A stretch of 32,000 bases of DNA from Acaryochloris marina MBIC11017 (GTDB lineage Bacteria; Cyanobacteriota; Cyanobacteriia; Thermosynechococcales; Thermosynechococcaceae), in contig NC_009925.1 in assembly GCF_000018105.1 (NCBI RefSeq), positions 3,510,001-3,542,000 of the forward strand, read 5' to 3'. The position numbers and the translations under genes were made by a program. Positions 2,087 through 28,095 of the stretch are shown one piece after another. The notes beneath the pieces are model-generated. The model worked only from the letters and a program-made list of their open reading frames with translations. It did not search any database and was not told where the DNA came from. Position 1 is the first letter of the stretch. Each line of letters opens with the position of its first letter.

Positions 2087-2132
2087 CTATTAAGACCGGT
2101 TTTCCTGACCGTTTGACCGATGTCTCCCTGGT

Positions 2133-2140
2133 GCGATCGC
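2133..2140. repeat. HIP1 octamer GCGATCGC (first of nine copies)
   Basis: Exact copies at 2133, 5372, 11909, 20522, 23105, 23241, 24322, 24447 and 28519 (start coordinates). A random 32-kb sequence would be expected to contain roughly 0.5 copies. Confidence 0.9.
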
Positions 2141-2208
2141 AAAAATACGCTCATAATTGGAGTAGCGATGCCCTAAGCGATGCAATCGGACCTAACGTCG
2201 GGAGGCCG

Positions 2209-4497: not shown

Positions 4498-7105
4498 GCA
4501 AGTTCATCTTCTGCCTGATCAACAGAGCTGGATGACATCCCTGCTGAATACGGTGCCTGCCCTAGTGGTCATTCTGGATGCCCAGGGTCGGATTGTGGGC
4601 TTTAATCAAGCCTGTGAACAGGTGTCTGAGTATACCTTTGCGGAGGTGAAAGAGCGATTTCTTTGGCAGGATTTGCTGTTGTCAGAAGAACAGGCCGGTG
4701 TACAAGCCGTTGTTGAGCAGCTGCTTTCTCATCAAGGCCCCAGTCAACATCAAAATCACTGGCGGACAAAGACCGGAGAACGTCGCCTGATCGCCTGGTC
4801 AAATTCTGTGATTCAGCAGGGGCACGCAGTCCAGTTTGTGATTTGCATGGGCGTTGATATTACAGAACAACAGCAGTCGGCGTTGGTTTTGCAGCAACAG
4901 ATTGAGCATGAACGACTGTTGAGTGGTATTGCTGCCCGCATCCGCCAATCCTTAGATCTGCGGACCATCCTTAACACGACTGTGGATGAAGTTCGGCAGC
5001 TGTTAGAGACGGATCGGGTGCTGATCTTTCGGATCGAAGAAAATTGGGACGGTATCGTGCTGGTGGAATCCGTCGATACGGACCAATGGCCTTCGATCCT
5101 GGGGGTTAAAATTCACGATCCGTGCTTTCCTGATATTTATGGGGGGCCGCCAGAGCAAATCCATGCTAGTGCGGTTGATAATATCTACACTGCCAATCTG
5201 TCTCCCTGTCATCAAGAGTTACTCCAACAGTTCCAGATTCAAGCCAATTTAGTGGTGCCCATTATCTTGGAGAATCGAGTCTGGGGTTTACTGATGGCCC
5301 ACCATTGTCGGGAGCCGCGCCATTGGAAGTCTCTAGAGATTAAGTTACTGAGTCGATTGGCGATTCAACTTGCGATCGCAATTCAGCAGTCCGAACTGTA
5401 TTGCCAACTGCAGGCAGAATTGACCGAGCGTGAACAAGTCGAAGTGGTTTTGCAAGAAGCCAAACATAATCTAGAGCAGCGGGTTGTGGAGCGCACCGCA
5501 GCCCTCCGCCAGGCCAACCAACAATTACGATCTGAACTGCAAACCCGTCAACAGGCAGAAGCGGCCTTACAGCATTCGCAGAAGCGTATCTCTGGCATTT
5601 TGGAAATTGCCGATGATGCCATTATTTCCGTGGATGGCTCTTTTACCATCACCCTGTTCAACCAGGGGGCGGAAAAGATGTTTGGATATCGCCGTCAAGA
5701 TATCCTCGGCCAGCCCCTGCATAAGCTCTTGCCCGATGATTTGGTCCTGTCTCATCAATCGCAGATGCAGCGGTTTGGTGACGCTTCCAAGGACGCATCC
5801 ATGACCACCCAAATGGGGGCTCGGCGTCGCCCGATCACCGCTCAGCGTCGAGATGGTACCTACTTTACGGCGGAGGCCTCCATTTCTAAACTGCAGATGG
5901 GTGAAGAACAGGTCTTTACGGCCATTCTGCGAGACATTACTGAGCGTCTAGAAGCTCAAGCGTCCCTGACCAAGCTCACCCGCCAAAATGAATTGATTCT
6001 TAATTCCATGGGGGAAGGGCTTTGTGGGGTCGATTTACAGGGGCACATCACCTTTGTGAATCCCGCTGCGGCTGATATGCTGGGCTACGCGATTTCTGAT
6101 TTGATTGACCAGCCAATGGCAACAATTTTGGGGCCTGATCCGCAACCGCTGAATGGCGATCTGAATGCCCTTTATCCCTTTGAGGATTCTTTACGGTCGG
6201 GGACCACCCATCGGTTTATTACCGATGAATTTCAGCGGCGCGACGGCACCCTGTTCCCAGCGGAATATGTGAGTACTCCGATTCGTGAACAGGAAAAGAT
6301 TACGGGAGCGGTAATCACTTTTAAAGATGTGAGTGATCGTCAAGTGGTGGAACGGATGAAGGATGAATTTATTTCCGTGGTCAGCCATGAACTGCGCACG
6401 CCCCTGACCTCGATTCATGGATCTCTGCGGATGCTCACTAGTGGCTTGTTGACTGCTCACCCCGATAAAAGCCAACGCCTGCTTAAAATTGCTGTTGATA
6501 GTACCGATCGGTTGGTGCGGCTCATTAACGACATTTTAGATGTAGAACGGATTGAATCCGGGCAGGTCAGCATGACCAAAGACCCGTATAATATTGCCGA
6601 TTTGATGGTTCAAGCCGCCAATACCATGCAGGGCATGGCGAGTCAGATGCAGGTGCAATTAGCAGTAACACCGTTAGCCGTGCTGACGGATGTGGATGGA
6701 GATCGAATTGTCCAAACCCTGACTAATCTTTTGAGCAATGCGATTAAATTTTCCCATTCGGGGGGCACTGTAGAAATGAGTGCCCATGTAATGCCGCAAC
6801 AGCCGCCAAGCTGTGCCTTAAGTGCCCCTGCCGCCCCCTCCCTGACCCCCGGCGATGCGCCTCAAGTCTGTATTTGGGTGCGCGATCAGGGGCGAGGGAT
6901 TCCCCCTGACAAAATCAACACCATCTTTGAACGGTTTCAACAAGCCGATTCTTCCGATGCCCGAGACCATGAGGGCACAGGGTTAGGACTGGCCATTTGC
7001 CAGAGTATTGTGCATCAACATGGCGGCCAAATTTGGGTAGAAAGTCAGCTCGGAAAAGGGAGTACCTTTTCCTTCACCTTACCCATTCAGCGAAACGACA
7101 CGTAA
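4490..7105 (+). CDS. Soluble sensor histidine kinase (PAS, GAF, coiled coil, PAS, PAS, HisKA, HATPase_c)
   Basis: ATG 4490 overlaps the upstream stop by 8 nt (ATGCTTGA). No TM segment is evident. H-box VSHELRTPLTSIHG, N-box NLLSNAIKFS, G1 VRDQGRGI, G2 GTGLGLAI. A GAF-like block ends ...VWGLLMAHHC. Confidence 0.9.
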   Translation: MLEQVHLLPDQQSWMTSLLNTVPALVVILDAQGRIVGFNQACEQVSEYTFAEVKERFLWQDLLLSEEQAGVQAVVEQLLSHQGPSQHQNHWRTKTGERRLIAWSNSVIQQGHAVQFVICMGVDITEQQQSALVLQQQIEHERLLSGIAARIRQSLDLRTILNTTVDEVRQLLETDRVLIFRIEENWDGIVLVESVDTDQWPSILGVKIHDPCFPDIYGGPPEQIHASAVDNIYTANLSPCHQELLQQFQIQANLVVPIILENRVWGLLMAHHCREPRHWKSLEIKLLSRLAIQLAIAIQQSELYCQLQAELTEREQVEVVLQEAKHNLEQRVVERTAALRQANQQLRSELQTRQQAEAALQHSQKRISGILEIADDAIISVDGSFTITLFNQGAEKMFGYRRQDILGQPLHKLLPDDLVLSHQSQMQRFGDASKDASMTTQMGARRRPITAQRRDGTYFTAEASISKLQMGEEQVFTAILRDITERLEAQASLTKLTRQNELILNSMGEGLCGVDLQGHITFVNPAAADMLGYAISDLIDQPMATILGPDPQPLNGDLNALYPFEDSLRSGTTHRFITDEFQRRDGTLFPAEYVSTPIREQEKITGAVITFKDVSDRQVVERMKDEFISVVSHELRTPLTSIHGSLRMLTSGLLTAHPDKSQRLLKIAVDSTDRLVRLINDILDVERIESGQVSMTKDPYNIADLMVQAANTMQGMASQMQVQLAVTPLAVLTDVDGDRIVQTLTNLLSNAIKFSHSGGTVEMSAHVMPQQPPSCALSAPAAPSLTPGDAPQVCIWVRDQGRGIPPDKINTIFERFQQADSSDARDHEGTGLGLAICQSIVHQHGGQIWVESQLGKGSTFSFTLPIQRNDT

Positions 7106-7120
7106 AGGTATACCGGATAC

Positions 7121-7501
7121 ATGACAGCAAAGTGCATCCTCGTAGTGGATAACGAGCTTTACATTCAAGAAGTGGTTCAGATTGCGTTAGAAACGATCAA
7201 CAATTGGCGCGTCGTCACGGCCAGTTCTGGTGCTGAAGGGCTGCTGAAGGCGGAGAAAGAACGCCCCGATGCTATTCTCTTGGATATGATGATGCCGGAT
7301 ATGGATGGGGCCACTACTTTTCAGAAGCTGCAGGCTAATCCAGTTACGCAAACCATTCCAGTGCTGTTACTGACCGCTAAAATTCAAACGGCGGATCAAA
7401 AGCGTTATCAAGCCATGGGCGTCCATTCGACGATTGCCAAGCCCTTTGATCCGTTGCAGCTCCCCACCCAGATTGCAGATGTATTAGGCTGGCAGTTATA
7501 G
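7121..7501 (+). CDS. Single-domain CheY-like response regulator
   Basis: 126 aa. ILVVDNE, phospho-acceptor context AILLDMMMPDMDG, LLLTAK, AKPF. Starts 15 nt after the kinase stop. Confidence 0.9.
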   Translation: MTAKCILVVDNELYIQEVVQIALETINNWRVVTASSGAEGLLKAEKERPDAILLDMMMPDMDGATTFQKLQANPVTQTIPVLLLTAKIQTADQKRYQAMGVHSTIAKPFDPLQLPTQIADVLGWQL

Positions 7502-15712: not shown

Positions 15713-16231
15713 ATGAGTTTTGTGATGGTCGACGTGGAGTCGGATGGTCCTATCCCCGGCGACTATTCGATGGTTTGTTTTGGAGCTGTGATTGTAGAGC
15801 CAACGTTGTCAAAAACGTTTTATGGGCAGTTAAAGCCGATTTCTGAACAGTGGGTTCCAGAAGCATTAGCGGTCAGTGGTTTTAGTCGGGATGATGTCCT
15901 TGGCTTTGAGGAACCAGCTATGGTGATGCAGGCGTTTGCGGATTGGATTACCGAGAATAGCAAGGGGCGTCCGTTCTTTATTTCGGACAATAACGGCTTT
16001 GACTGGCAGTTTATCAATTGGTATTTTCACCATTTCCTGGGCAATAATCCCTTTGGCTATACATCTTCCAATCTTGGTTCTCTGTATAAGGGCCTGGTCA
16101 AGGACACCTTCACGAATTTCAAGCACTTACGGAAAACGGCGCATACTCACCATCCGGTGGATGATGCTCGGGGGAATGCAGAAGCGCTATTGCTGATGAA
16201 GGAACAGGGCTTGAAAATTAGCCTGAAGTAA
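15713..16231 (+). CDS. DEDDh-type 3'-5' exonuclease (DnaQ fold, small Rv2179c-like size class)
   Basis: 172 aa. Exo I VMVDVESDG, Exo II FFISDNNGFDWQF, Exo III HHPVDDARGNAE (H-x4-D). Confidence 0.75.
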   Translation: MSFVMVDVESDGPIPGDYSMVCFGAVIVEPTLSKTFYGQLKPISEQWVPEALAVSGFSRDDVLGFEEPAMVMQAFADWITENSKGRPFFISDNNGFDWQFINWYFHHFLGNNPFGYTSSNLGSLYKGLVKDTFTNFKHLRKTAHTHHPVDDARGNAEALLLMKEQGLKISLK

Positions 16232-16267: not shown

Positions 16268-17377
16268 ATGCCTCTCGATTTTCATTTCAATCTGTTCGAT
16301 TTTCTGATGGTGATGGCCGTTGAGCTGGGTATCGGACTCCTGATTAGCTTGATCAAAAGCGCTTTAGTGAAGCGACATGCCATTAACAATCCAGACCGTT
16401 ATCAAGTGTTTCAATGTAATGACTATGAGTCAGTTGGGTATGGTGCTCGAAAGCTCGATAATTCTGACAATGCTTTGGGGTTGGACTACAGCTTTGTAAT
16501 CGTTGAATTTCAGGCAGGAGAAGTTATTCGAGAACGATTCTTCTCACCGCTAGGTGACTCAATCAAGGTTGAGTATATCGATGGTGCACCAAAAGCTAAG
16601 ACATCATTCTGGTCAGTACCTATCTATTCGATGACTGTTGTGATTCCTTTAGTAGTTGGTGTTTTGGGAGTCCTGGTTATTACTGAACTGGATGATGATA
16701 GCTTTGAGAATGCTTATGAAATCGCTTCTAACATTGGGAATTACGCAATTTATTTAATGGCTTCTGGCGTTGTGTGGACCACTGTACTGAATGGTATCCC
16801 TAGCGTGTTCGCTATGAATGAGATTGTGAATAGAGATGCGACTAATATCTCCAATCGTCAATTGTCGCCACCCATTCCAGCAGAAACAACCATCTCAGTA
16901 CCAAAAGAACGCGAACCAATTGTGTTGGAGCGCTACTTTTGGGTGTTTATCATCGCTGTCACACTTTTTAATGGATTAACGCTGTATTTCCAAGGATGGA
17001 ATGATATGGCAACCCTGGAACTGAAGTTGAGCTATGCCAAACTCACGCTCTACGTACTGTTGTGGGCCAATGTACCTTGGATAGTGATGGGCACAGGTTG
17101 TCTACAGAAAAATTTGACCTTCAAAGATTATCTAGAGCCTCAAACCCTGCACCCTGCCTTAATTGCCTTTTTTGTTTCACTGGTTTGTGTCTTTGCGGTT
17201 GGCAGTTATTGGATATTTGCTGCAGGTGGTGCTGTGCAGCTTTTGCATTACCCAGGGATTGATGCTCACTCTTGGACTTTAGAACAGGTTAAACAGATCT
17301 GGGGGCTTGGAGTGATATCAGGGATAGGTACGATAGGGGTTATGGTCGCCCGCGTGAATCGCACTTCCGTTGATTGA
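16268..17377 (+). CDS. Hypothetical polytopic membrane protein (about 7 TM helices)
   Basis: 369-aa ORF starting 36 nt after the exonuclease stop. It has an N-terminal TM, an ~80-aa soluble insert, then six further hydrophobic helices. No family recognised. Confidence 0.7.
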   Translation: MPLDFHFNLFDFLMVMAVELGIGLLISLIKSALVKRHAINNPDRYQVFQCNDYESVGYGARKLDNSDNALGLDYSFVIVEFQAGEVIRERFFSPLGDSIKVEYIDGAPKAKTSFWSVPIYSMTVVIPLVVGVLGVLVITELDDDSFENAYEIASNIGNYAIYLMASGVVWTTVLNGIPSVFAMNEIVNRDATNISNRQLSPPIPAETTISVPKEREPIVLERYFWVFIIAVTLFNGLTLYFQGWNDMATLELKLSYAKLTLYVLLWANVPWIVMGTGCLQKNLTFKDYLEPQTLHPALIAFFVSLVCVFAVGSYWIFAAGGAVQLLHYPGIDAHSWTLEQVKQIWGLGVISGIGTIGVMVARVNRTSVD

Positions 17378-17601: not shown

Positions 17602-19485
17602 ATGTCGGCACCAGATTTAATCCATACCCTGGAACAGACAACTCGGAAACGACTCAAACAAATGTCTGTTGAGGACTTTAATCAAAGTCTGGATGATACC
17701 TATCACCATTTGCAACTTCAGCCCAATGCTTATGCCCTAAATGATGAACATCAAATCGTTGGGCTGAGTTTGCAAGGGGTGGATGGCCATGAATTAGTGG
17801 ACGCATCCATCGAGCAATATCCACATCTCTCCGCCTTGTATTTATTCGATATTGTCTCGCCCGAAATCGTCCCATTTGCCAGTCTCCCAGGACTCTCCAC
17901 CATTGCCCTGTCGGGACAAGACGTGACGGCTGCCTCCTATCTTCAGCCAACCACCAATCTCACCACGGTTTATTTAAAAACCACCAATATTTCTGATTAT
18001 TCCTTCTTGTCGGACCTCAAGAACCTAACCCACCTCGACTTAAGCAACAATCAGATTGCTGATCTTTCCTTTATCCAAGACCTTAAACAACTCACTAGCC
18101 TCGGGTTGGCGTCAAACAAAATTGTTGATATCTCAGGACTAAAAGACCTGACGAAACTGAACACCCTGAATTTGCGCTCCAATGCAATAGACGATTATTC
18201 CGTGTTGCTCAATCTCAAAGAACTTCGCCAACTAACGGTTAGTGTTCGTGAAGCAACCGATCTTGCCTTTCTACAAGATCTTAAAGACCTGACCCATCTA
18301 GATCTCAGTTACAACCACTGGATTTCTGATATTTCGGTTTTACGCAATCTCCCAAAGCTCACCCATCTAGATTTAGGGTCTAATCAGATTTCGAATATTG
18401 CAGTTTTGCTAGACCTGCAACAACTTACGCACCTGTCTTTAAGTTCCAATCAAATTTCTGATGTTTCTGTCTTACAAACCCTCCAGGGACTTGAACGTCT
18501 GGATGTCAGTGCTAACGAGATTGCTGATATCGCCATCCTACAAAATCTCCAAGGGTTGACCCATCTGGATATCAGCTCTAACGAAGTGTCTGACATTTCC
18601 GTTTTGCAGGATCTCACGACGCTCACCCAACTGAACGTCAGTTCAAATGAGATTATTGACTATTCCGTTTTACAAGGTCTAACCCAACTCACGAGCCTAG
18701 ATGTCAGTGATAATCAGATGTCTGAGATCTCAGACTTACAGGGACTGCACTCACTCACCAGTCTGAACCTCAGCTATAACCAGCTGTCTGATATTTCAGT
18801 CTTACAGGACCTCAAGCAACTGGCTACTCTGAACTTAAGCTACAACCCAGTCTCTGATATTGCAGTACTGCAAAACTTCAAGGATCTCACCACCCTGAAT
18901 TTAAGTTTCACCCAGATTACCGACCTCTCCCACCTGCAAGACCTTAAAGGACTAATCAGTTTAGATTTACATAGCAATCAGATTACAGATATCTCAGCGT
19001 TACAAGACCTGGAGGGACTCTACCGGCTGAATGTCAGTGATAATCAGCTGTCCGATATTGCTGCATTAAGAAAACTCAAGGGCCTCTTCAGCCTGAATTT
19101 AAGCATTAATCAGATTTTAGATATTGCAGCCCTACAAGATCTCACAAGACTAACTAGCTTGAATGTCAGTCATAATCAGCTGTCTGATATTTCAGTTTTG
19201 CAGGGACTCACCAGGCTGAACAGTCTAGATTTAGGAGCCAACCAGATTGCTGATATCTCAGTTCTGCAAAATATCCCAGGGCTTTTTAGTCTGGATTTGC
19301 GATTTTCTGATGTTTCTGTGTTTCAAGACTTCAAGGGATTGACCAGTCTGAATCTCAGTTCTAATCAAATTTCTAGCGTTCCTGAATGGTTACGTGAACA
19401 GGGGCTTCCCATTCAAACGGAGGATGAAGAGGCCTTATTCTGCATTAACTTATGTGGTAATCCCCTCCCAATGTCACCTGGATAG
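17602..19485 (+). CDS. Leucine-rich-repeat protein (internalin-type 22-residue LRRs), no signal peptide
   Basis: 627 aa. At least 21 consecutive units of consensus LxxLxxLTxLxLSxNQIsDIsvLq. Confidence 0.9.
   Translation: MSAPDLIHTLEQTTRKRLKQMSVEDFNQSLDDTYHHLQLQPNAYALNDEHQIVGLSLQGVDGHELVDASIEQYPHLSALYLFDIVSPEIVPFASLPGLSTIALSGQDVTAASYLQPTTNLTTVYLKTTNISDYSFLSDLKNLTHLDLSNNQIADLSFIQDLKQLTSLGLASNKIVDISGLKDLTKLNTLNLRSNAIDDYSVLLNLKELRQLTVSVREATDLAFLQDLKDLTHLDLSYNHWISDISVLRNLPKLTHLDLGSNQISNIAVLLDLQQLTHLSLSSNQISDVSVLQTLQGLERLDVSANEIADIAILQNLQGLTHLDISSNEVSDISVLQDLTTLTQLNVSSNEIIDYSVLQGLTQLTSLDVSDNQMSEISDLQGLHSLTSLNLSYNQLSDISVLQDLKQLATLNLSYNPVSDIAVLQNFKDLTTLNLSFTQITDLSHLQDLKGLISLDLHSNQITDISALQDLEGLYRLNVSDNQLSDIAALRKLKGLFSLNLSINQILDIAALQDLTRLTSLNVSHNQLSDISVLQGLTRLNSLDLGANQIADISVLQNIPGLFSLDLRFSDVSVFQDFKGLTSLNLSSNQISSVPEWLREQGLPIQTEDEEALFCINLCGNPLPMSPG
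18007..19389 (+). repeat. Tandem ~66-bp coding periodicity (LRR array)
   Basis: 21 units of 19-23 codons. Units are diverged at DNA level but share exact stretches, for example the 20-mer CAGCTGTCTGATATTTCAGT at 18781-18800 and near 19178-19197. Confidence 0.85.
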
Positions 19486-19533
19486 CGTTTGAATATCTGT
19501 AGATTGAAGGTATCCAACGAAGCCATCCCCTGA

Positions 19534-21270
19534 CTACATTGCATCTCCTACCAGCACCTGCCAGGACAGCTCATTCAAATCAAGAACGAACTCCACATCG
19601 TTCTCCACATACTCAAGATGATCGCCTTGCTGAACCCAACGATTCCCACCCGTAATATGAATCTGGTTATTAGTGAGCATCGCTTGATGATTACTAATCC
19701 AGCCCGGTGGCTGTCCGCTAGTCACAAGCTTGGTAATCACAAATGTATGGCAGTTTAAGCAATACACCGGGGTTTCATCGATCACTCGATCCCAGGGATA
19801 GCCGAGATTGCCAATGATATAGATTTGGGCGTCCACAAGGGTAGCGGTATGGAAATCAGTGGGGGGAAAGACATTCCGAGGATAGCCATAAATTGTGAAT
19901 CCGCCTTCACCATCCGAGACCACCACATCGTTGTAGATATAAAAGTCTGGATCGTAGTAATCTTCATGCTCACCCGCAATTTCGATCACCCTGCCATCCG
20001 GCAACAACGTGATGGATTGACCATAACGATTGAATGACCAAACCGGACCCGCTTCTTCTGTCTCTGTATCCCGATAGTGGTGACGCGCCCCATAGGCTGA
20101 GTAACGCAGCTTTACCATATCTCGCCAGAAGGGAAAAGACATTTCCTCGGGATTCGTTGCCCCAAACGTTGGGTGTTTCTGGGTCTGATAGATTTGGGGA
20201 GAGACGGAATAGAACCTCGATGAATCAACCTGGGTTAACTGGCAGCGAACCTCTTGATTCACATCTTGTAGCTTAGCCCCTGCCGTGACAAGCAACTTCG
20301 CCATCGCCCCGCTCTTGGCCTTTTTAATAATGTGCCGCTCAGATTTGCGGATGCCTTGACTGACATAGGTGAGCTTCGCCCCTGCTGCCAAGAGGTGTTG
20401 AGCGATGACCACATCATCTAGCTCCACGGCGGATAAGAGAGGTGGTTCACCCGTGTCGTCTGTGCCGTTGACGTCTTGCCCTATCTCAATCAGCCAGGCT
20501 ACCAGAGCACGGTTTCGGGATGCGATCGCATACATCAGGGGAACGGTGCCATACCATCCAGTGACCTCTGGATCAGAGCCAGCTGCCAAGAGACATTTGG
20601 CTTTGTCTAAGTGGCCAACCTGCAGACTCAGCAACCAAGGGGTGCGCTTCCAGGCATCGACAGCCTTTAAGTCAGCAGTCTCCAACAATGCTTCCATGTC
20701 GGATAAAGTGCCCAGGACAACGGCATGCATCAGCGGCGTCCAGCCCAACATAGTGGCATCACTACCCGCCCTTAACAGGCACTGCACAATTGCAAACCAG
20801 CCACACCGCGAAGATTCAGACAATACAGATTCCCCGCAACAGGTTTCGCCATTTAGAGGAGCACCTTGATCGATCAGAAACTGCATCAGTGCCGTCAGAT
20901 CCGTTTCATTGACGGCGACCGCACTAAACATGGCCGTGATCAGGGCGTCATGTCCCTCTTCATCCGCTTGAGTAATATCAGCCCCTTGCTCCAACACCCA
21001 CTGAATTTTCTCGATTCGTCCTGACTGGATGGCTAGAAAAAGAGCCGTTTTGCGGTTATTGGGCGAGAAAAGCAGTTGTGCGCCTTTGTTCAATAAGAGG
21101 AGGACAATTTCTAGAGAAGCGATGGGGCTAGATAGAGCGCACTGGATAGGGGTAAGACCATAAGTCGCTTCCCCACCGTCTTGATCCTGGATTTCCAGAT
21201 CGGGTACTTCAGTCAGTGCTTGCCGAACGCTTTCCAGATCGCCGTTGTACGCATCTTGGTGGATTTTCAT
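19534..21270 (-). CDS. Ankyrin-repeat protein with a C-terminal Kelch-like/beta-rich domain
   Basis: 578 aa. The N-terminal ~345 aa contains multiple ANK units (G.TPL..A......V..LL..GA). The C-terminal ~230 aa has repeated beta-strand motifs (DGRVIEIAGE, IYIIGNLGY, IHITGGNRW). ATG 21270 is 33 nt downstream of the caspase gene stop and has AGGA 4 nt upstream. Confidence 0.85.
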   Translation of the reverse strand: MKIHQDAYNGDLESVRQALTEVPDLEIQDQDGGEATYGLTPIQCALSSPIASLEIVLLLLNKGAQLLFSPNNRKTALFLAIQSGRIEKIQWVLEQGADITQADEEGHDALITAMFSAVAVNETDLTALMQFLIDQGAPLNGETCCGESVLSESSRCGWFAIVQCLLRAGSDATMLGWTPLMHAVVLGTLSDMEALLETADLKAVDAWKRTPWLLSLQVGHLDKAKCLLAAGSDPEVTGWYGTVPLMYAIASRNRALVAWLIEIGQDVNGTDDTGEPPLLSAVELDDVVIAQHLLAAGAKLTYVSQGIRKSERHIIKKAKSGAMAKLLVTAGAKLQDVNQEVRCQLTQVDSSRFYSVSPQIYQTQKHPTFGATNPEEMSFPFWRDMVKLRYSAYGARHHYRDTETEEAGPVWSFNRYGQSITLLPDGRVIEIAGEHEDYYDPDFYIYNDVVVSDGEGGFTIYGYPRNVFPPTDFHTATLVDAQIYIIGNLGYPWDRVIDETPVYCLNCHTFVITKLVTSGQPPGWISNHQAMLTNNQIHITGGNRWVQQGDHLEYVENDVEFVLDLNELSWQVLVGDAM

Positions 21271-21303
21271 TGCGTCCTGTGCCCAAACCTTGGGTCAGCA
21301 ACA

Positions 21304-24300
21304 TCATTGGGAACACTGCCGTTGCGAAGGCAGTAGCTTAGCAGTCGTTGTGAGATAGCTAGAGAGATGGCGACACCCCTTCTCCAATAAACCATCTAGA
21401 TCGAGATTGGCATTCTGGAGAGTCTCTCCGGTGCTCACCCATATTTGCTTACCCAGCAAATTGATCTGTGCCACAGCGCCTAACCCATCCAGCGTTTTGA
21501 TCAGTCTGCCTTGATCTACCTGCCACACCTTAACCGACTGATCCGCACTCCCCGAGACTAAAATCGGCTGATCAGGCAGAAATGCCAAACTCGTCACCCC
21601 ATTTTGATGGCCCGTCAGGGTTTGGACTAACGTCCCGTCTCGCCACAGCTTGATCGTATTGTCCCAACTCGCCGACGCTAACAGATTGCCCTCGGGGTTG
21701 AACTGGATTTGAGAGACGGCCAAGCCGTGACCCGTTAGAGTTTTGACTGGGGTGCCGTCTAGCTGCCACAGCTTCACCGTCTCATCATCACTGCCCGACG
21801 CTAGATAGCGTGGCCCCATGCTAACGCTCGTTACGGAGCCATCGTGGGCCTGGATGGTTTTGACAGGTTTTCCCGTGGTGGCATCCCATAGGCGAATCGT
21901 TTGGTCATCACTGCCCGAGACCAAAGTTTTGCCATTTGGACTGAAATCGAGACTATTAATTTTGCCCGTATGGCCAGAGAGGGTGCGTTGCACCGTCCCC
22001 TCATGGATATCCCACACCTGAATGGTTGAGTCATGCCCGGATACTAGCTGTTGGCTATCGGCATTAAACCGGAGGGCGTATATGGGCGTTTCGCTTTTGA
22101 GGGTTTTGAAAGGGACTTTGCCCACTTGTGGATCGGGTCGCCAGAGCTGAATTACCCCGTCTAGACTGGCCGTGGCTAAGATCTGCTGGTCTGGACTCAC
22201 GGCCATGGCCAGGATAGGTGATGTGTCTTCAGGAATGGATGGTGTGGCCCAGACTCGAACCTGTTTATCGACACTGGCTGAGACTAAGGTTTTGCCGTTG
22301 GGATGAAAGGCAGCATCAAGGGTCGGAGCGCTATGCCCTTTCAACGTTGACAAGAGTTGACCTGTTTCAACTTGCCATAGTCGGAGGCTGTGATCGGCAT
22401 GGGCCGAGACTAAGGTGTTGCCATCTGGGCTAAAGGCGACGCTAGTTGCGACGACATTCTTTGTTTTGAGGGTATGCAATAGTTGGCCCGATAGGGTCCA
22501 TAACTGAATCGTGCCGTCTTCCATAGAAGCAGCGAGGGTCTGGCCGTCTGGACTGATGGCGATATCGGTGACTGCAGTAGCCTGTTTGGGCAAGGTACGG
22601 AGCGTTTGCCCCTTCGCCACATCCCAAATCCGTACGGTTTTATCTTCACTGGCAGATACCAGCACATTGTCGGAGAGGGCAATGGCATTGACCCAACCCT
22701 GATGCCCAGATAGGGGTTTCACTAGTTGGCCTGTACCGGCATCCCAGAGTTTAATCACGGATTCTCGCCCTGCGGTTGCCAACTGATGGCCCTGGGGATG
22801 AAAGGCTAAGCCTGTTCCCTGAGGGGAAGCTGCAAAGCTGGAAAGCTGCTTCCCTGTTTTGGGAGACCAGCGTTGCACCGTTCCCTGAGTCGTGATCACG
22901 GCAATAGACTGGTCATCAGGACTAAAGGCAACGTCATTGACTTTCTCGCCAAGGTCCAGGGTATGGAGGTGCTGGCCGCTTGCCTGCCAAATCCGTACCG
23001 TTTGGTCATCACTGCCCGACGCAATCCACTGCCCCGATGAACTGATGCTAACGGAGGTGACCCGTTGGGTATGGCTTTCTAGACGGTTTCGTTCATGGGT
23101 ATTTGCGATCGCATCTCCTAACGTCAGAGCGGTTTGGGTGCGGATTGCTCCCAACGTATGGCCATCAATGCCCCAACCCCAGAGGTTTTGCATCTGTCTC
23201 GCAGCTTGGGTACTGGTAAGGAGTGCTTCGAGTTGCTGATGCGATCGCAACTGGGATTCCGACAGAGCATTTAAGGCTCGAATCTCACTGAGCTGAGTCT
23301 GCTGCCGCTGAAGAAAAGCCATACCCGCTAGTCCCGTCGCCACGACTCCCAATAGACCAATAATCCCCACTGCAACCTGTGCCCGTCGTAACCGTTGTTT
23401 AGCCCGCTGCTGCTCCTGTGCTTGGGCTGATAAACCCGTTTGAACAAAGGCTTGCACCTCCGTCGATAGCTCGTCTGTATACTTCACGTATAGTTCAGCT
23501 GCGGCATCCAGTCGCACCCCGCGCAACAGAAAATCGGGAGACTGCTGACTCTGTTGCCAATCCTCCGCCGCTTGCTCGATCTGGCGTTGAGTTTGTAGAC
23601 GAACCCGGTTTTCCTCCAACCACCAGCGCAAGGTGGACCAGTGACGAATCAGAATTTCATGGATCACTTCAACGGTCACATCCTGTTTAATCCGCTCCAG
23701 CCAGTCGGGTTCAGAGGGTTCGGGTACCTCATCACCTTTACTACCTGAGATCTCTGCTGGAGCTAGATCTTCCTCTAAACTAACGATCACTAACTTGGCA
23801 TCCGTCAGCGCTTTCAGGGTTCGTTCCACTAATTCCGCCGGATACTTGGGCACGATTAAGTCAGACTTTTTGATTCGCCGCCGGGTATCTTCTGTGCCAT
23901 CCCCTAACTGAGTCAACGCCAGAAAGATCCACTGGGCACAGACTTGAGCCTCTGCATCCAAACTGTCGTACACGGCTTGGGCTTTGCGTTCTAACGCCCC
24001 CTTTAAGCCACCAATCTGCTGCTGATAAATTGCAAGAGTCAATACTCCCGGCTGGCGCTGTTCCCAGAGCTGCTCTAAAACAAATTCCAGCAGCGGCAAG
24101 TCCCCCGCGAGATTGCTCAATTCTTCCAGCAAGACCTCCACTAGCTCAGGCTCAACTGCTAGACCCACTTGCTCTGCTGGATTGAGAATGACTTGGCGAT
24201 AGCTGTCCGTTGTCAGAGCAGGGGGCACCAGAATATTGGACTCTGGCAACCGCTGGGCTAAGGCGGGGTATTCCAAACAGGGCGCAATAAAATCGCTGCG

Positions 24301-26433
24301 TAGAGTGATGATCAGCTTAAAGCGATCGCCTGCATGGTCTATGGCTCCAAACATCAGGTCCAAGAACTGCTGACGATCTTCAGGAGCCGCGAGGGTAAAT
24401 AACTCTTCGAACTGATCGATTACGAGGACGATGGTGGATTGGGGGTGCGATCGCAACCAATACACAAATCCCTCAGTTCCCTGATAGAGCATTCCTTCTA
24501 ACTGCAATCGCTGATATTGCTGCTCTTTGGCCGTCCCACTCTCGATTAACCGTTCCACTAAGGCTTGTAAAGGTTTGGCTCCTGGTCGGAGGCTCCGTAC
24601 CCACCATTGGTCACTGTCTGGAATATGCTGCCCCTGCTGCAGTTGGGCCATCAACCCTGCCTGCACCACTGAGGATTTACCGCTGCCGGAAGCGCCCACA
24701 ACGGCTAGAAAAGATTGATCTCGCACCGCCTCAATCAGTTGCTGGGTCAAGGCTTCCCGTCCAAAGAAAAACGGTGCATCATCGGGGCCAAAGGCCCGCA
24801 GCCCCATATAAGGACAAATCCCTAAGTCAAAATCTGAGGTAGTACTGCGCGCCCCCATCCCACCGGGCAATACTTCAATCACGCCCTGCACCCCAGATAG
24901 CCAGGTCTGCAGCTGTATCTCACTCCCTGCTAGCTGCATCTGGAGCTGAGCAATCCAGCTAGCCACAGGCATTCCCTCTTGGGGATTGGCTTGCGTTAGG
25001 GTCTCATACAAAACGTCTGCAAACTGTTCCGGCTGATCGGCGGGAGCTGCTGCGGCTAACAGACACTGGCCCTGATAATGGGTCTGTAAATCTTCAATCC
25101 AATCCAGCAGATCTGTATCCCCAGGACAGTCCAGAATCACAATTTGCTGGGCCAAAGGCGACCGTCGCAGCATCTGCCGCAACCAGGACCGACTAATCGC
25201 CACCCCTTCCGGCAACACCAGATGAGCCTCGCCCGTTTCCGTCTGTTCCGTTTTGCCCCGCAAGTAGAGGAGTGCGGTTGTCACCGTCGTGGGGGTAGGC
25301 TGAGCTGGATCCGCAATTTGCAAACAGGTTTGAATGGCCTCTCGCACGTCTTGCCAGGTTTGCTCCGCCTGGGGGAAATAGGTCAGCTCAAAGGCCCCCG
25401 CCCCGCGCAACACTTTTCCAAATGCCAACGCTGTGGGATTATCTGCCAATCCTGCCACCATCAGGGCCTGCCGAGGATAAGCATGGACAGGCAGCTCCGG
25501 CTGTAGCCCCAGTACCAATTCCCCCACCCCTTCCACAATCCGCTTCGGCGTCTGTTGGGGATATTCGGCATCGAGCTGGGTTTCGCCCCGGCCTCGCTTT
25601 TGCTGGTTGATCAGGCGCAGCTGCTGGTTGACCTTATCGATATAGCGTAGGGTCTGGTAGTAGACGTACTTATAGAGGGCATCGGCTTCAATCACTCCGT
25701 CATTGTCGGCAGCCTCGCCCAGCAATCCTTGAATCAGGTAATAGGTAAACACCCCATGTTCCAGCTCGGGAAACTCCCAGGACTGTTGGTTCTGATCACA
25801 GGATAGAAGCGCATAAAACCCCTTACTCTGGGCCGCCCGCTGTCGTAACAGGGCCATCAGTTGGGGGATTGGATTGGGTAATGGGTCTGGGGTTTCATCT
25901 TTACTCCCCAGCTGCATACTTATACCGCCGCTATGGCAAGCATCCAGCCACACCAATTGCTGACGAGCAGCACTATTGGCCAGGGTCGTGAGTAATTCCT
26001 GCACCGGAAGTCCCGTCTGCAGTAGCTGTTCCTTTTGGGTATCAGCGAGGCATAAATAGGTTTGCTGAGTCGGCGGATCAACGACGCCATGCCCTGAAAA
26101 ATAAAATAGAAGGGTGTCTTGCGGTTGGGCCTGCTCGACACTTTTCTGAAGGCTCGTACGAATGCTCGCTAGGTCAGGTAAGGTGCCGGATGCCTGAGGA
26201 TGATCGTGATGCAAAACAATGGATTTTTGCGGAAACGCCGCTGTGGCAGTCGTCAGGGCATCCCCCAATCCCTGACAGTCTAAAGCTGGATAGGCCAGGT
26301 TCGATAGTTGTGCATCAGCATAATGATTAACCCCTACCAACACGACCCATAGCTTGGCTTCTCCCGATTCCAAGGCTCGGGTTGATCGACTGGTTTTGAC
26401 GCTAACAGGGGACATAATGGTGGTGGGCTTCAC
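21304..26433 (-). CDS. Giant orthocaspase (peptidase C14), pseudocaspase, STAND-type P-loop NTPase, TM helix, 14xWD40 protein
   Basis: 1709-aa uninterrupted ORF (GTG at 26433; first ATG at 26415). Motifs are listed in the sub-features that follow. Confidence 0.9.
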   Translation of the reverse strand: MKPTTIMSPVSVKTSRSTRALESGEAKLWVVLVGVNHYADAQLSNLAYPALDCQGLGDALTTATAAFPQKSIVLHHDHPQASGTLPDLASIRTSLQKSVEQAQPQDTLLFYFSGHGVVDPPTQQTYLCLADTQKEQLLQTGLPVQELLTTLANSAARQQLVWLDACHSGGISMQLGSKDETPDPLPNPIPQLMALLRQRAAQSKGFYALLSCDQNQQSWEFPELEHGVFTYYLIQGLLGEAADNDGVIEADALYKYVYYQTLRYIDKVNQQLRLINQQKRGRGETQLDAEYPQQTPKRIVEGVGELVLGLQPELPVHAYPRQALMVAGLADNPTALAFGKVLRGAGAFELTYFPQAEQTWQDVREAIQTCLQIADPAQPTPTTVTTALLYLRGKTEQTETGEAHLVLPEGVAISRSWLRQMLRRSPLAQQIVILDCPGDTDLLDWIEDLQTHYQGQCLLAAAAPADQPEQFADVLYETLTQANPQEGMPVASWIAQLQMQLAGSEIQLQTWLSGVQGVIEVLPGGMGARSTTSDFDLGICPYMGLRAFGPDDAPFFFGREALTQQLIEAVRDQSFLAVVGASGSGKSSVVQAGLMAQLQQGQHIPDSDQWWVRSLRPGAKPLQALVERLIESGTAKEQQYQRLQLEGMLYQGTEGFVYWLRSHPQSTIVLVIDQFEELFTLAAPEDRQQFLDLMFGAIDHAGDRFKLIITLRSDFIAPCLEYPALAQRLPESNILVPPALTTDSYRQVILNPAEQVGLAVEPELVEVLLEELSNLAGDLPLLEFVLEQLWEQRQPGVLTLAIYQQQIGGLKGALERKAQAVYDSLDAEAQVCAQWIFLALTQLGDGTEDTRRRIKKSDLIVPKYPAELVERTLKALTDAKLVIVSLEEDLAPAEISGSKGDEVPEPSEPDWLERIKQDVTVEVIHEILIRHWSTLRWWLEENRVRLQTQRQIEQAAEDWQQSQQSPDFLLRGVRLDAAAELYVKYTDELSTEVQAFVQTGLSAQAQEQQRAKQRLRRAQVAVGIIGLLGVVATGLAGMAFLQRQQTQLSEIRALNALSESQLRSHQQLEALLTSTQAARQMQNLWGWGIDGHTLGAIRTQTALTLGDAIANTHERNRLESHTQRVTSVSISSSGQWIASGSDDQTVRIWQASGQHLHTLDLGEKVNDVAFSPDDQSIAVITTQGTVQRWSPKTGKQLSSFAASPQGTGLAFHPQGHQLATAGRESVIKLWDAGTGQLVKPLSGHQGWVNAIALSDNVLVSASEDKTVRIWDVAKGQTLRTLPKQATAVTDIAISPDGQTLAASMEDGTIQLWTLSGQLLHTLKTKNVVATSVAFSPDGNTLVSAHADHSLRLWQVETGQLLSTLKGHSAPTLDAAFHPNGKTLVSASVDKQVRVWATPSIPEDTSPILAMAVSPDQQILATASLDGVIQLWRPDPQVGKVPFKTLKSETPIYALRFNADSQQLVSGHDSTIQVWDIHEGTVQRTLSGHTGKINSLDFSPNGKTLVSGSDDQTIRLWDATTGKPVKTIQAHDGSVTSVSMGPRYLASGSDDETVKLWQLDGTPVKTLTGHGLAVSQIQFNPEGNLLASASWDNTIKLWRDGTLVQTLTGHQNGVTSLAFLPDQPILVSGSADQSVKVWQVDQGRLIKTLDGLGAVAQINLLGKQIWVSTGETLQNANLDLDGLLEKGCRHLSSYLTTTAKLLPSQRQCSQ
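21400..23075 (-). repeat. 14 WD40 repeats (two putative 7-bladed propellers)
   Basis: 14 units counted by eye, each ending in ..[ST]..D.[ST][IV][KR][IVL]W (for example SGSDDQTVRIWQ, SASEDKTVRIWD, SGSDDQTIRLWD, SGSADQSVKVWQ). Confidence 0.85.
23311..23376 (-). other. Single predicted transmembrane helix (residues 1020-1041, VAVGIIGLLGVVATGLAGMAFL)
   Basis: A 22-residue uncharged hydrophobic stretch preceded by the basic cluster QRAKQRLRRAQ. It lies between the NTPase/helical region and the WD40 array. Confidence 0.7.
24415..24696 (-). other. STAND NTPase core: Walker A GASGSGKS (24673-24696, Lys586) and Walker B VLVIDQFEE (Asp673 = 24415-24417)
   Basis: Preceded by CPYMGLRAFGPDDAPFFFGRE, a motif I recognise from WD40/TPR-associated novel STAND (nSTAND-type) NTPases. 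Confidence 0.8.
25936..26091 (-). other. Caspase catalytic dyad region (His115 codon 26089-26091; Cys166 codon 25936-25938)
   Basis: LLFYFSGHGVV and LVWLDACHSGG are the canonical C14 His and Cys motifs in the correct order and spacing. Confidence 0.85.
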
Positions 26434-26705
26434 CCAGTTTTGATGTGTTTAAGGCTAGTGCCGCACTTGGCATGGGCTACTTTCTCCAAGTTATAGGGTT
26501 CGACATCAAGATTTATGCAAACCATCAGATTTTGATCGCATCACGGCTGGCACTGGACGGCTGATGCATTGATAATGTTGCCCTAAAACGGTTGTGGTCA
26601 AGTTAGAGATTGCCCGCTAAAAAGGTGTAAAAGAATAAAAATTAGCAGAATCAAATGCTTATCTCACTTTTGGTTAACTTCTTGCAGAGAAATAAGCCTA
26701 GACCA

Positions 26706-26733: not shown

Positions 26734-26790
26734 CATCATCCTTGATATAAGAGTGGGCAACCTGATTTATCCCAACTCCACCCTGGTTTG

Positions 26791-28095
26791 ATGATGTTAG
26801 GTACATTCCTAAATCGGCTGCTTCAGCGTTTGTACCAGCGGGTGATTATGATTATGATCATCTTGTTCAGTCTAGGGCTAGGAGTCGCTTTTGTAGGTAC
26901 CTACTATCTCTCCATATATTGGGTAGATAGCCAAGCGGTGCAATATTCAAGCGTTGTTATTCAGACCTTAAATCAGGCCCGGCGGTTCTATAGCGAAGAT
27001 GTTGTTGATCGCCTAGAGTCTATCAAGGGTGTGCAAGTTATCCCTGAATATCATGCTGTCAGTGGCGGCATTCCCAACCCCGCCACCTTTACGATTGAAT
27101 TGGGTGAATTGCTGAGTAATCAGTCCACAGGGACCATCTTCCGACTCTATAGCAACTTTCCGTTTCCCCATCGACAGGCCACAGGAGGCCCTCAAGATCA
27201 ATTTGAACGGGCTGCACTCAACTATCTCCAAAATCATCCCCAGGCCGCTTACTATCGCAAAGAGCGAGTGGGAGATCGTCTTTCATTTCGATATACAGAA
27301 GCTGTTTTGATGGAACCCAGTTGTGTCGCATGCCACAATACATTGCCCAGTAGCCCCAAAAAAGACTGGAAGGTTGGTCAGGTTCGAGGGATTGCCGAAA
27401 TCACACAGCCTCTCGAACAGGGCCTACAAACGGCTCAGGGAGGTTTAAAGACTATCTATCTGGCCCTGACCATCATCATCACGTTGGCCATGATGGGGTT
27501 GGGGCTGGCTGTGGGTCGGTTCCGCACCCTTAATCAGGAACTAGAGAAGAAAGTTGCGGAAAGAACAGCTGCCCTTGAGCGATTAGCCATGGTGGATGAG
27601 CTGACTCAATTGGCCAACCGACGCCAATTTGATCAGCGTTTAGAGCAGGCCTGGAAAGTCGCTCGGAGACAGCAGCACCCTTTATCTTTAATTTTGTGTG
27701 ATGTTGATTATTTCAAAAACTACAACGATACCTATGGTCATCCAGCCGGAGATGAATGCTTGCGGTCGATAGCCAAAGTCTTAGACAGGAGCATCAGACG
27801 TCCTGGAGAATTTTCTGCCCGGTATGGTGGTGAAGAGTTTGCCATAGTTTTACCCAATGTCAGTCGTATGGATGCCATCCAAATCGTCACGACGATTCAA
27901 ACGGCCATTCACCAACTCCAAATTCCTCATCGCTCATCTTTAAACCATGCTTCTGTCACGCTAAGCCTGGGCATTGCCACGATGATTCCCAATGCTAATT
28001 ATTCCCCTGAACAATTGATACAAGCAGCGGATGAAGCCCTATACCAAGCTAAGCATCAAGGGCGAGATCGATATGTTGTCTGGGATAACCCGTAA
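26791..28095 (+). CDS. Diguanylate cyclase with N-terminal TM-anchored Tll0287/DUF3365-like CxxCH (heme c) sensor domain
   Basis: The track start 26788 is TTG, followed by ATG ATG. TM helix, then a periplasmic-type domain with CVACH (27322-27336), a second TM, a coiled coil, and a GGDEF domain with intact RYGGEEF (GGEEF = 27826-27840). No RxxD I-site lies immediately upstream of the motif. Confidence 0.85.
   Translation: MMLGTFLNRLLQRLYQRVIMIMIILFSLGLGVAFVGTYYLSIYWVDSQAVQYSSVVIQTLNQARRFYSEDVVDRLESIKGVQVIPEYHAVSGGIPNPATFTIELGELLSNQSTGTIFRLYSNFPFPHRQATGGPQDQFERAALNYLQNHPQAAYYRKERVGDRLSFRYTEAVLMEPSCVACHNTLPSSPKKDWKVGQVRGIAEITQPLEQGLQTAQGGLKTIYLALTIIITLAMMGLGLAVGRFRTLNQELEKKVAERTAALERLAMVDELTQLANRRQFDQRLEQAWKVARRQQHPLSLILCDVDYFKNYNDTYGHPAGDECLRSIAKVLDRSIRRPGEFSARYGGEEFAIVLPNVSRMDAIQIVTTIQTAIHQLQIPHRSSLNHASVTLSLGIATMIPNANYSPEQLIQAADEALYQAKHQGRDRYVVWDNP

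Follow-up and report, generated by a model that had tools for sequence, protein, structure and literature searches.

The gene at positions 21304 to 26433 (minus strand) of the window, a 32,000-nucleotide stretch of the Acaryochloris marina MBIC11017 genome, appears from its sequence to be orthologous to the genes for a conserved cyanobacterial protein that joins an Apaf-1-like sensor to a protease in a single chain. Its 1709-amino-acid (aa) product comprises, in order, an orthocaspase domain, an alpha/beta middle domain, an nSTAND1 NTPase, one transmembrane (TM)-like helix, and about 14 WD40 blades. We consider it likely that this is a conserved stand-alone protease-sensor protein and that the gene next to it, which encodes ankyrin repeats and a Kelch-like domain (Ank-Kelch), is an accessory neighbor and not an obligate component. 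Judged by its relatives, Ank-Kelch seems to belong to a separate, widespread family that is found on its own in other genomes. Its place directly downstream of the caspase-STAND-WD40 gene would have arisen in one Acaryochloris sublineage, where Ank-Kelch is probably transcribed by read-through.

Domain architecture of the 1709-aa protein

The open reading frame (ORF) begins with GTG, and translation could alternatively begin at codon 7, an in-frame ATG. A sigma-70-like promoter match lies 5' of the gene (26572 to 26601, minus strand; consensus match only). An Rfam scan of the whole window returned no match.

The caspase (Peptidase_C14) domain spans aa ~27 to 300 (25534 to 26355, minus strand; Pfam PF00656, 1.8e-17) and has the p20 caspase-hemoglobinase fold and His-Cys dyad that define Peptidase C14. 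The catalytic residues are His115 in FYFSGHG (codon 26089-26091, minus strand) and Cys166 in LDACHSGG (codon 25936-25938, minus strand), both invariant across 121 sequences. Foldseek matched the domain to MALT1, metacaspase-9, and Yca1 with E values down to 8e-10, and a sequence search of the PDB gave a marginal match to metacaspase-9 (E = 0.008). The nSTAND1 NTPase occupies aa 541 to 966 (23536 to 24813, minus strand) and matches nearly the full length of PF20703 (1.5e-122, profile positions 1 to 378 of 379). Besides the motif CPYMGLRAFGPDDAPFFFGRE, it carries an intact Walker A (GASGSGKS; Lys586 at 24676-24678, minus strand) and an intact Walker B (VLVIDQFEE), and GASGSGKS and DQFEE are invariant in an alignment of 121 homologues. 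The C-terminal repeats (21394 to 23046, minus strand; Pfam WD40, 1.7e-118 in 11 stretches) were counted as 12 clear and 2 degenerate blade-end motifs, enough for two beta-propellers. The original prediction had described an intact caspase dyad, STAND NTPase motifs, and 14 WD40 blades, and had read the domain order as that of apoptosomes and NLRs; this part was borne out: a single chain carries the effector at its N terminus, the STAND NTPase in the middle, and the repeats at its C terminus.

Between the caspase and the NTPase lies a conserved alpha/beta middle domain (aa ~318 to 525; 24859 to 25482, minus strand) that AF2 models with a local pLDDT of 75 to 92. It had no Pfam or NCBIfam match, and a PDB sequence search with its profile was empty. 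Alignment to the caspase profile with hhalign gave E = 1.6e-4 and 50% probability, falling to only 5.7% against a single sequence; the middle domain is possibly a degenerate caspase-like duplicate.

A TM-like hydrophobic helix (aa 1020 to 1041, VAVGIIGLLGVVATGLAGMAFL; 23311 to 23376, minus strand), directly preceded by RLRRAQ, is the top Kyte-Doolittle window of the whole protein (2.2), and its hydrophobicity is kept across 121 homologues. It sits between the nSTAND1 NTPase and the WD40 repeats. Apaf-1 has no TM helix between its NTPase and WD40 parts, and we counted this element against an Apaf-1-like reading of the protein. The helix may leave the WD40 sensor facing the periplasm or lumen. 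The idea that it is a cis-encoded EACC1-like element found no profile support and is speculation.

Conservation and relation to known systems

Full-length relatives are 57 to 94% identical to the protein, and its first 1084 aa are 57 to 64% identical in Gloeocapsa, Nodularia, Coleofasciculus, Phormidesmis, and others: the family is conserved over its full length across cyanobacterial orders. The dN/dS of the gene was 0.09 to 0.12 for the majority of pairs and reached 0.18 at most, and that of the WD40 part was 0.15 to 0.22. A metagenome scan with the caspase-nSTAND1 part yielded only three loci, one of them cut at a contig end; the relatives' loci discussed below were instead taken from gene-context look-ups. 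We found no biochemical study of the caspase-STAND-WD40 family in the literature consulted, whether of its ligand, its substrates, or its physiological role.

The architecture is already described and not new (PMC2853523; PMC8195603; bioRxiv 10.64898/2026.01.04.697583). Metacaspases with NACHT and 13 to 14 WD40 repeats were catalogued for A. marina MBIC11017 and other cyanobacteria by Jiang et al. (2010; PMC2853523), and MBIC11017 gene 641252580, annotated there as "NACHT, WD40(13)," looks like a candidate orthologue of the gene described here. Among true cyanobacterial orthocaspases, the accessory domains that occur most often are WD40 and AAA_16 (PMC2853523; PMC8283722). The cyanobacterial beta-family metacaspases (WD40(13-15), sometimes NACHT) resemble the 1709-aa protein in the p20 caspase dyad, the central P-loop NTPase, and the ~14 WD40 repeats; we saw no substantive difference, although the surveys are silent on the TM-like helix and the middle domain. 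A recent STAND survey found that the homologues closest to Apaf-1 are cyanobacterial and suggested a direct effector mechanism (bioRxiv 10.64898/2026.01.04.697583). The protein shares the protease, STAND, and double-propeller logic of those homologues, but Pfam assigns it to nSTAND1 and not NB-ARC, and the TM-like helix is extra. The Apaf-1, CED-4, and Dark apoptosomes are alike in building an autoinhibitory sensor from a STAND NTPase and two WD40 propellers and in activating caspases by induced proximity; here, by contrast, the caspase is fused in cis and not CARD recruited, the NTPase is nSTAND1, and a TM-like helix is present. The nSTAND1-centered conflict systems, from the study that defined nSTAND1 (Kaur et al. 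2021; PMC8195603), likewise have an enzymatic effector ahead of a full-length nSTAND1 and repeats behind it, but many of them rely on EAD adaptors, FGS/CLec sensors, or DGR diversification, and nothing of the kind occurs here.

If the protein works as apoptosomes, NLRs, and Avs proteins do, its WD40 propellers would bind a ligand, ligand binding would lead to NTP-dependent oligomerization of the nSTAND1 module, and oligomerization would bring the N-terminal caspase domains together and so activate them, after which the active caspase would cleave targets encoded elsewhere in the genome. The protease is, on this analogy, most likely the built-in effector, so an adjacent partner gene would not be needed. 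We infer a role in regulated cell death, a stress response, or defense.

The genomic neighborhood and the EACC1 question

The neighboring genes encode an LRR protein, a 369-aa protein without a family, an exonuclease, ArsR, GGDEF, and ceramidase. These are transport, signaling, and housekeeping surroundings, not a defense island, and the expectation that no gasdermin-like effector would be adjacent held for all neighbors in Pfam and PADLOC scans.

We nevertheless weighed an Avs-like or EACC1-type abortive infection system, in which the WD40 part would detect a phage protein and the caspase would cleave a death effector encoded in trans, and we regard it as unlikely. The caspase of the 1709-aa protein seems closest to the subfamily associated with EACC1 (Kaur et al. 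2020, PMC7159879; Evans et al. 2025, PMC12642450): it matches the NCBIfam family "caspase, EACC1-associated type" (NF047832) at 1.2e-42 with 145.7 bits, above the cutoff of 140, which three homologues straddle with 129, 147, and 128 bits. In EACC1 systems the caspase is followed in the same chain by a C-terminal sensor region that varies and can include STAND modules and TM helices (PMC7159879; PMC12642450); nSTAND1 occurs in some of these systems (PMC8195603), and caspase-Avs12 cleaves EACC1, leading to pores (PMC12642450). However, the small single-TM EACC1 gene that lies directly 5' of the caspase gene in those systems is missing at this locus as well as at the homologue loci that we examined. 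Within the 354-nt upstream spacer, the usual EACC1 position, no ORF exceeds 31 aa, and at six distant homologue loci the flanking ORFs carry no EACC1 or effector domain, the upstream ORFs having no family match. PADLOC gave the protein a generic "caspase" match (3.7e-18), a WD40-driven match to a HEAT-ARM model, and a weak P-loop match to mad3; no Avs model matched, which leaves the protein outside the Avs and bNACHT groups as modeled there. An identity of 57 to 64% across orders, together with a dN/dS of ~0.1 overall and of 0.15 to 0.22 even in the WD40 part, is also atypical for arms-race sensors.

The Ank-Kelch gene and its linkage

The downstream ORF (578 aa; 19534 to 21270, minus strand) begins with an ankyrin-repeat part (aa 1 to 350; 20221 to 21270, minus strand; Ank_2, 2.2e-32) that AF2 models as helical repeats and that Foldseek matched to DARPins and ankyrins. 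A PADLOC match to PDC-M72A was confined to these repeats and was treated as generic. The C-terminal domain (aa 351 to 578; 19534 to 20220, minus strand) had been called beta-rich and unrecognized; beta-rich it is, the AF2 model (pLDDT 89) being all-beta from aa ~419, but it can be recognized as Kelch-like from a PF24681 match (6e-11, below the gathering score) and a marginal match to KLHDC3 in a PDB sequence search (E = 0.009). Foldseek results for the whole model were swamped by ankyrin and DARPin matches and say nothing about this domain. It contains the near-invariant motifs GEHEDYYDPDF.IYND and TDFH and has more than 1400 relatives, many of them standalone.

The two genes are separated by 33 nt (21271 to 21303, minus strand), with an AGGA 8 nt upstream of the Ank-Kelch ATG, as had been reported at the outset. 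We saw no terminator-like or promoter-like site in this spacer, where the original prediction had said that a promoter or terminator would count against it, and the spacer RNA is unstructured (fold z-score 0.13 against shuffles). In four Ank-positive relatives the spacer measures 33 to 37 nt and both genes lie on the same strand. The shared strand, the short distance of 33 to 37 nt, and the lack of a terminator-like signal make it probable that the two genes are co-transcribed. Ank-Kelch is under purifying selection (dN/dS 0.24 to 0.32), so it is a working gene and could have gained a functional link locally.

Synteny and gene loss

The arrangement could be read as a lineage-restricted two-gene module in which the caspase-STAND protein has recruited Ank-Kelch as its substrate, adaptor, inhibitor, or co-sensor. 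Both ankyrin and Kelch domains have folds that bind other proteins, and the close same-strand spacing, the separate ribosome-binding site, the selection on Ank-Kelch, and the retention of the pair in two Ank-positive subclades and in locus L081, with its rearranged flanks, are all in its favor. Synteny and gene loss led us to consider it quite unlikely all the same.

The forward comparison covered 80 genome loci with Ank-Kelch orthologues at 35 to 52% identity, from cyanobacteria, Planctomycetota, Proteobacteria, and other phyla; at least 1 kb of upstream sequence was available at 66 of them and at least 5.2 kb at 51. Searches with tblastn and family HMMs found the caspase at 0 of 80 loci and the middle domain at 0 of 80. 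A strong nSTAND1 match occurred at a single locus (L003), where it belongs to an nSTAND1-pentapeptide gene beyond an opposite-strand ORF of 924 aa, and at L036 a WD40 gene is separated from Ank-Kelch by two other genes. The commonest neighbor cluster was present at no more than 6 of 79 loci. Conversely, there was no Ank-Kelch gene at L087, L089, L092, L093, L097, L099, or L100, the roughly seven informative loci outside the clade, which hold relatives of the 1709-aa protein at 52 to 74% identity. Adjacency thus does not recur in independent lineages, and the caspase-STAND and Ank-Kelch pairing was seen only in one Acaryochloris sublineage. The proposal that the ankyrin/Kelch protein is a caspase substrate, effector, or co-sensor, central to the original prediction, would have been undone on its own terms by a lack of conserved synteny, which is what we found in both directions; Ank-Kelch has, moreover, been deleted with the large gene kept, and the proposal is unsupported. 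Nor does a helical-repeat partner recur downstream in a more general sense: Gloeocapsa has a TPR gene 8 nt 3', and nothing comparable was present in Phormidesmis, Nodularia, Coleofasciculus, or others.

Within Acaryochloris, the window, L094, L083, and L081 carry Ank-Kelch, and L088 (A. marina NIES-2412), L096, and L095 lack it. According to blastn breakpoints, the missing segment corresponds to 19477-21284 in L088 and to 19471 to 21223 (minus strand) in L096, where 47 nt of the 5' end are left, ~82% identical over the aligned positions and with the ATG destroyed; because of this remnant, we conclude that the gene was deleted. The Ank-deleted clade, which includes NIES-2412, is nested among Ank-positive lineages. 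Its large gene is intact (1708 to 1710 aa), and dN/dS is unchanged (0.100 between two Ank-deleted genomes versus 0.093 to 0.104 among Ank-positive pairs). The dS of Ank-Kelch (0.12 to 0.29) is 2 to 4 times below that of the large gene, the ceramidase gene, and the exonuclease gene (~0.4 to 0.8); its history therefore differs, and the two genes were not co-inherited as a unit. L081 keeps the pair although both flanks are rearranged. We considered a mobile two-gene cassette, yet the 172-nt ceramidase remnant retained at L081 marks it as a rearranged version of the same locus, and a plasmid megablast with the 6.9-kb two-gene unit gave no match. As far as the sequences indicate, all occurrences of the pair can be traced to one ancestral locus.

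Very unlikely, finally, is that Ank-Kelch was freshly recruited in one Acaryochloris sublineage as a co-transcribed client of the Apaf-1-like orthocaspase, in versions in which its Kelch domain (distantly like the C-terminal degron readers KLHDC2/3) could bind new C termini made by the caspase or its ankyrin array could keep the caspase in check; if true, this would be a very young protease-adaptor pairing alongside natural Ank-minus revertants.

Implications

Because the ankyrin/Kelch gene is a strain-variable neighbor, it would be a mistake to catalogue the locus as a new two-gene module of NLR-like type. What the stand-alone reading singles out is a large, strongly conserved cyanobacterial caspase-STAND-WD40 family. 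Natural Acaryochloris strains with and without Ank-Kelch, all with the large gene intact, offer a ready comparison, and the TM-like helix and the extra middle domain pose concrete structural questions for bacterial apoptosome-like proteins. Should the helix place the WD40 sensor outside the cytoplasm, the family would be a transmembrane apoptosome-like receptor, a reading that we likewise rate as very unlikely.

Domain architecture and conservation of the caspase-STAND protein

The 1,709-aa open reading frame (ORF) on the minus strand at window positions 21304-26433 encodes a protein in which domain scans detected Peptidase_C14 (1.8e-17), nSTAND1 (1.5e-122, entire profile covered), and WD40 (1.7e-118). 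A count of blade-end motifs gave ~14 WD40 blades. All of the motifs that the original prediction quoted for this protein were found, the numbering His115, Cys166, and Lys586 was correct, and the sequence features and domain logic it described are borne out by the ORF and the domain scans. Among 121 family members, there is essentially no variation in the His/Cys dyad or in the Walker A and B motifs.

Between nSTAND1 and the WD40 repeats lies a Gly/Ala-rich, transmembrane (TM)-like helix (aa 1020 to 1041; window 23311-23376) that is the most hydrophobic stretch of the protein (Kyte-Doolittle, 2.2) and is kept across the family, with a conserved basic RLRRAQ motif just before it. The positive-inside rule predicts extracytoplasmic WD40 propellers, unlike those of Apaf-1. 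A strongly conserved alpha/beta middle domain (aa 318 to 525; window 24859-25482) had no match in Pfam, NCBIfam, or PDB. Its motifs LLYLRG and QQIVILDCPG line up with the caspase His and Cys motifs, and profile-profile comparison with the caspase domain in hhalign gave an E value of 1.6e-4 and 50% probability, compared with only 5.7% for a single sequence. It is possibly a second, degenerate caspase-like domain, which as a pseudo-caspase could act in cis as a dimer-like partner.

The nearest named relative is an “nSTAND1 domain-containing NTPase” from Acaryochloris marina NIES-2412 (91% identity over the first 1,084 aa), and many cyanobacterial genera (among them Gloeocapsa, Gloeocapsopsis, Phormidesmis, Coleofasciculus, Nodularia, Anabaena, Umezakia, and Aphanothece) have full-length relatives of ~1,700 aa at 57 to 64% identity. 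Within Acaryochloris, dN/dS for the gene is 0.09 to 0.12 in most pairs and never above 0.18, with values of 0.15 to 0.22 for the WD40 part. These comparisons point to a protein under strong constraint that has been retained widely, as opposed to one that evolves fast and is distributed patchily.

The gene belongs to an already catalogued kind. Jiang et al. (2010) listed eight metacaspases in A. marina MBIC11017, one annotated “NACHT, WD40(13),” and many WD40(14) metacaspases in Nostoc, Anabaena, Gloeobacter, and Trichodesmium (PMC2853523). In a 2021 survey, the accessory domains seen most often in true cyanobacterial orthocaspases were WD40 and AAA_16 (PMC8283722), and nSTAND1 was defined by Kaur et al. 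in 2021 (PMC8195603); the architecture was therefore already known. No experimental study of the family was found in the literature searched.

The ankyrin-Kelch-like neighbor

The adjacent minus-strand ORF (578 aa; 19534-21270), 33 nt from the caspase-STAND gene, encodes ankyrin repeats (aa 1 to 350) and a C-terminal domain that resembles Kelch (PF24681, 6e-11, under the gathering score; KLHDC3 in PDB, E = 0.009). A confident AF2 model (pLDDT, 89.4; pTM, 0.83) shows only beta structure beyond about aa 419. This Ank-Kelch protein and its ~570-aa relatives form a large family with members in cyanobacteria, Planctomycetota, Proteobacteria, Verrucomicrobiota, and other phyla. The gene is under purifying selection (dN/dS, 0.24 to 0.32). 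The Kelch-like domain (window 19534-20220), whose own family has more than 1,400 members, many of them standalone at 200 to 390 aa, contains acidic/His clusters (GEHEDYYDPDF.IYNDVVV and PPTDFH.ATLV) that are near-invariant in 53 orthologues and are suggestive of a ligand, metal, or catalytic site and not of a plain scaffold.

No minus-strand promoter-like or terminator-like site was found in the 33-nt gap and its surroundings, the spacer RNA folded no better than shuffled sequence (z = 0.13), and promoter-like matches lie upstream of the caspase-STAND gene. Read-through transcription into the Ank-Kelch gene is plausible, but this alone does not imply a functional link.

Synteny outside Acaryochloris

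Eighty genome loci with Ank-Kelch orthologues (35 to 52% identity) were searched; upstream sequence extended for 1 kb or more at 66 of them and for 5.2 kb or more at 51. Separate domains searched by tblastn gave no caspase, one nSTAND, and five WD40 matches; family HMMs built from the 121 members and run on six-frame translations gave no caspase, no middle domain, and one strong nSTAND1 match. The latter, in Microseira, is an nSTAND1-pentapeptide protein past an opposite-strand 924-aa ORF, and at another locus (L036) an opposite-strand ORF and a RidA gene stand between the Ank-Kelch gene and a WD40 protein gene. When all flanking ORFs were clustered, no neighbor family was common to more than 6 of 79 loci. 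Because of these searches and the clustering, we consider the Ank-Kelch family to be without a conserved partner.

In the reverse direction, an Ank-Kelch gene was found in none of the loci encoding caspase-STAND relatives at 52 to 74% identity (a JGI metagenome contig, Gloeocapsa PCC 7428, Phormidesmis ULC007, Nodularia, Coleofasciculus, and two further metagenome contigs). Unrelated housekeeping genes usually flank the caspase-STAND gene there, in many cases on the opposite strand. Gloeocapsa carries a TPR gene 8 nt downstream, which was rejected as a recurring partner, since it did not recur in the other loci.

The pairing and deletion of Ank-Kelch within Acaryochloris

The Ank-Kelch gene lies directly downstream of the caspase-STAND gene, with a spacer of 33 to 37 nt, in the window and in the Acaryochloris loci L094 (caspase-STAND protein 92% identical over its full length to that of the window), L083/L084, and L081/L082. 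It is missing from L088 (A. marina NIES-2412), L096, and L095. L088 and L096 have the same flanks as the window, with ceramidase on one side and LRR, exonuclease, ArsR, and pst genes on the other, and in both the convergent LRR gene directly follows the caspase-STAND gene.

Pairwise alignment of L096 with the window runs through the caspase-STAND stop codon, the spacer, and then 47 nt of the Ank-Kelch ORF (~82% identity over aligned positions, the ATG lost through an 8-nt deletion) before homology resumes at window position ~19470, which identifies a ~1.75-kb deletion with a remnant left behind. The L088 breakpoints are at 21285 and 19476. No more than 6 nt separate the right breakpoints of the two loci, a closeness that favors a single shared deletion. 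In the caspase-STAND protein tree, the Ank-deleted L096, P0130, and L088 form a clade nested among lineages that have Ank-Kelch, and a basal clade (L095, P0125, and P0129) is without it, in a different context at least in L095.

The pair is kept in L081 with different flanks. An independent cassette insertion there was rejected, given homology extending from 120 nt upstream of the caspase-STAND gene to 36 nt beyond the Ank-Kelch stop and a 172-nt remnant of the ceramidase gene; L081 descends from the same ancestral locus by rearrangement. Every occurrence of the pairing can be followed back to one historical event.

The caspase-STAND gene is intact (1,708 to 1,710 aa) after loss of its neighbor. 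Between the two Ank-deleted genomes its dN/dS is 0.100 at a dS of 0.38, some of which would be divergence older than the loss if the deletions were independent, and this value is indistinguishable from the 0.093 to 0.104 of pairs that have Ank-Kelch. In the same genome pairs, Ank-Kelch dS (0.12 to 0.29) is 2 to 4 times lower than that of the caspase-STAND, ceramidase, and exonuclease genes (~0.4 to 0.8). A tract from mid-Ank-Kelch through the LRR gene (window ~17700-20500) is ~100% identical to L094, whereas the caspase-STAND gene is only 85 to 98% identical, which indicates recent homologous recombination. Together, the lower dS and the L094 tract indicate that recombination has carried Ank-Kelch from strain to strain at times of its own, which is the behavior expected of a strain-variable accessory gene. 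The proposal that Ank-Kelch is a caspase substrate, effector, or co-sensor in an NLR-like two-gene module is unsupported by the comparative evidence, namely, synteny in both directions and deletion of Ank-Kelch with the caspase-STAND gene kept.

The LRR protein gene (627 aa; window 17602-19485, plus strand) converges on Ank-Kelch. All same-context Acaryochloris loci have it next to the caspase-STAND gene, whether Ank-Kelch is there or not, and it is not beside the relatives examined in other cyanobacteria.

Effector candidates and genomic neighborhood

The caspase domain appears closest to the subfamily that NCBI names after EACC1 (NF047832, “caspase, EACC1-associated type,” 145.7 bits versus a cutoff of 140); homologues score 128 to 147 bits, on both sides of the cutoff. 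Characterized EACC1 systems encode a small, single-TM pore-forming protein, activated by cleavage, directly 5' of the caspase gene (PMC7159879, PMC12642450), whereas the 354-nt spacer upstream of the caspase-STAND gene contains no ORF longer than 31 aa. At six distant homologue loci, upstream and downstream ORFs had no EACC1 or effector-domain match. Pfam and PADLOC scans of all neighbors identified transport, signaling, and housekeeping genes and no gasdermin; the sole defense-like match among coding neighbors was a small DEDDh exonuclease. The locus is no defense island, and on the simplest view the output is the fused protease itself.

The exonuclease (172 aa; window 15713-16231, plus strand; PADLOC PDLC00753, “Effector / Exonuclease,” 1.5e-39) has an ArsR-family regulator beside it at each same-context Acaryochloris locus, with no other defense component seen nearby. 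A 369-aa ORF (16268-17377, plus strand) had no Pfam or PADLOC match; L088 has Old-Yellow-Enzyme (Oxidored_FMN) and HxlR genes in its place, and L096 has both plus a fragment weakly similar to the ORF, so that this position looks like another variable slot. A Tll0287-like/GGDEF diguanylate cyclase gene (26788-28095, plus strand), between the caspase-STAND and ceramidase genes, is an indel, present in the window and L094 and not in L083 or L088. Farther away, an IS1-family transposase ORF (465-1154, minus strand; DDE_Tnp_IS1, 3.4e-22) borders a cluster of two-component and GGDEF signaling genes (2083-7501).

Proposed mechanism and implications

The mechanism that we infer to be most likely is that a ligand bound by the WD40 propellers would relieve autoinhibition and allow NTP-dependent oligomerization through nSTAND1, that induced proximity would then activate the N-terminal caspase domains, and that their cutting of cellular targets would end in regulated death, dormancy, or some stress response. 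The remaining value of this locus lies in the uncharacterized biology of a conserved caspase-STAND family and in the natural Acaryochloris strains with and without Ank-Kelch.
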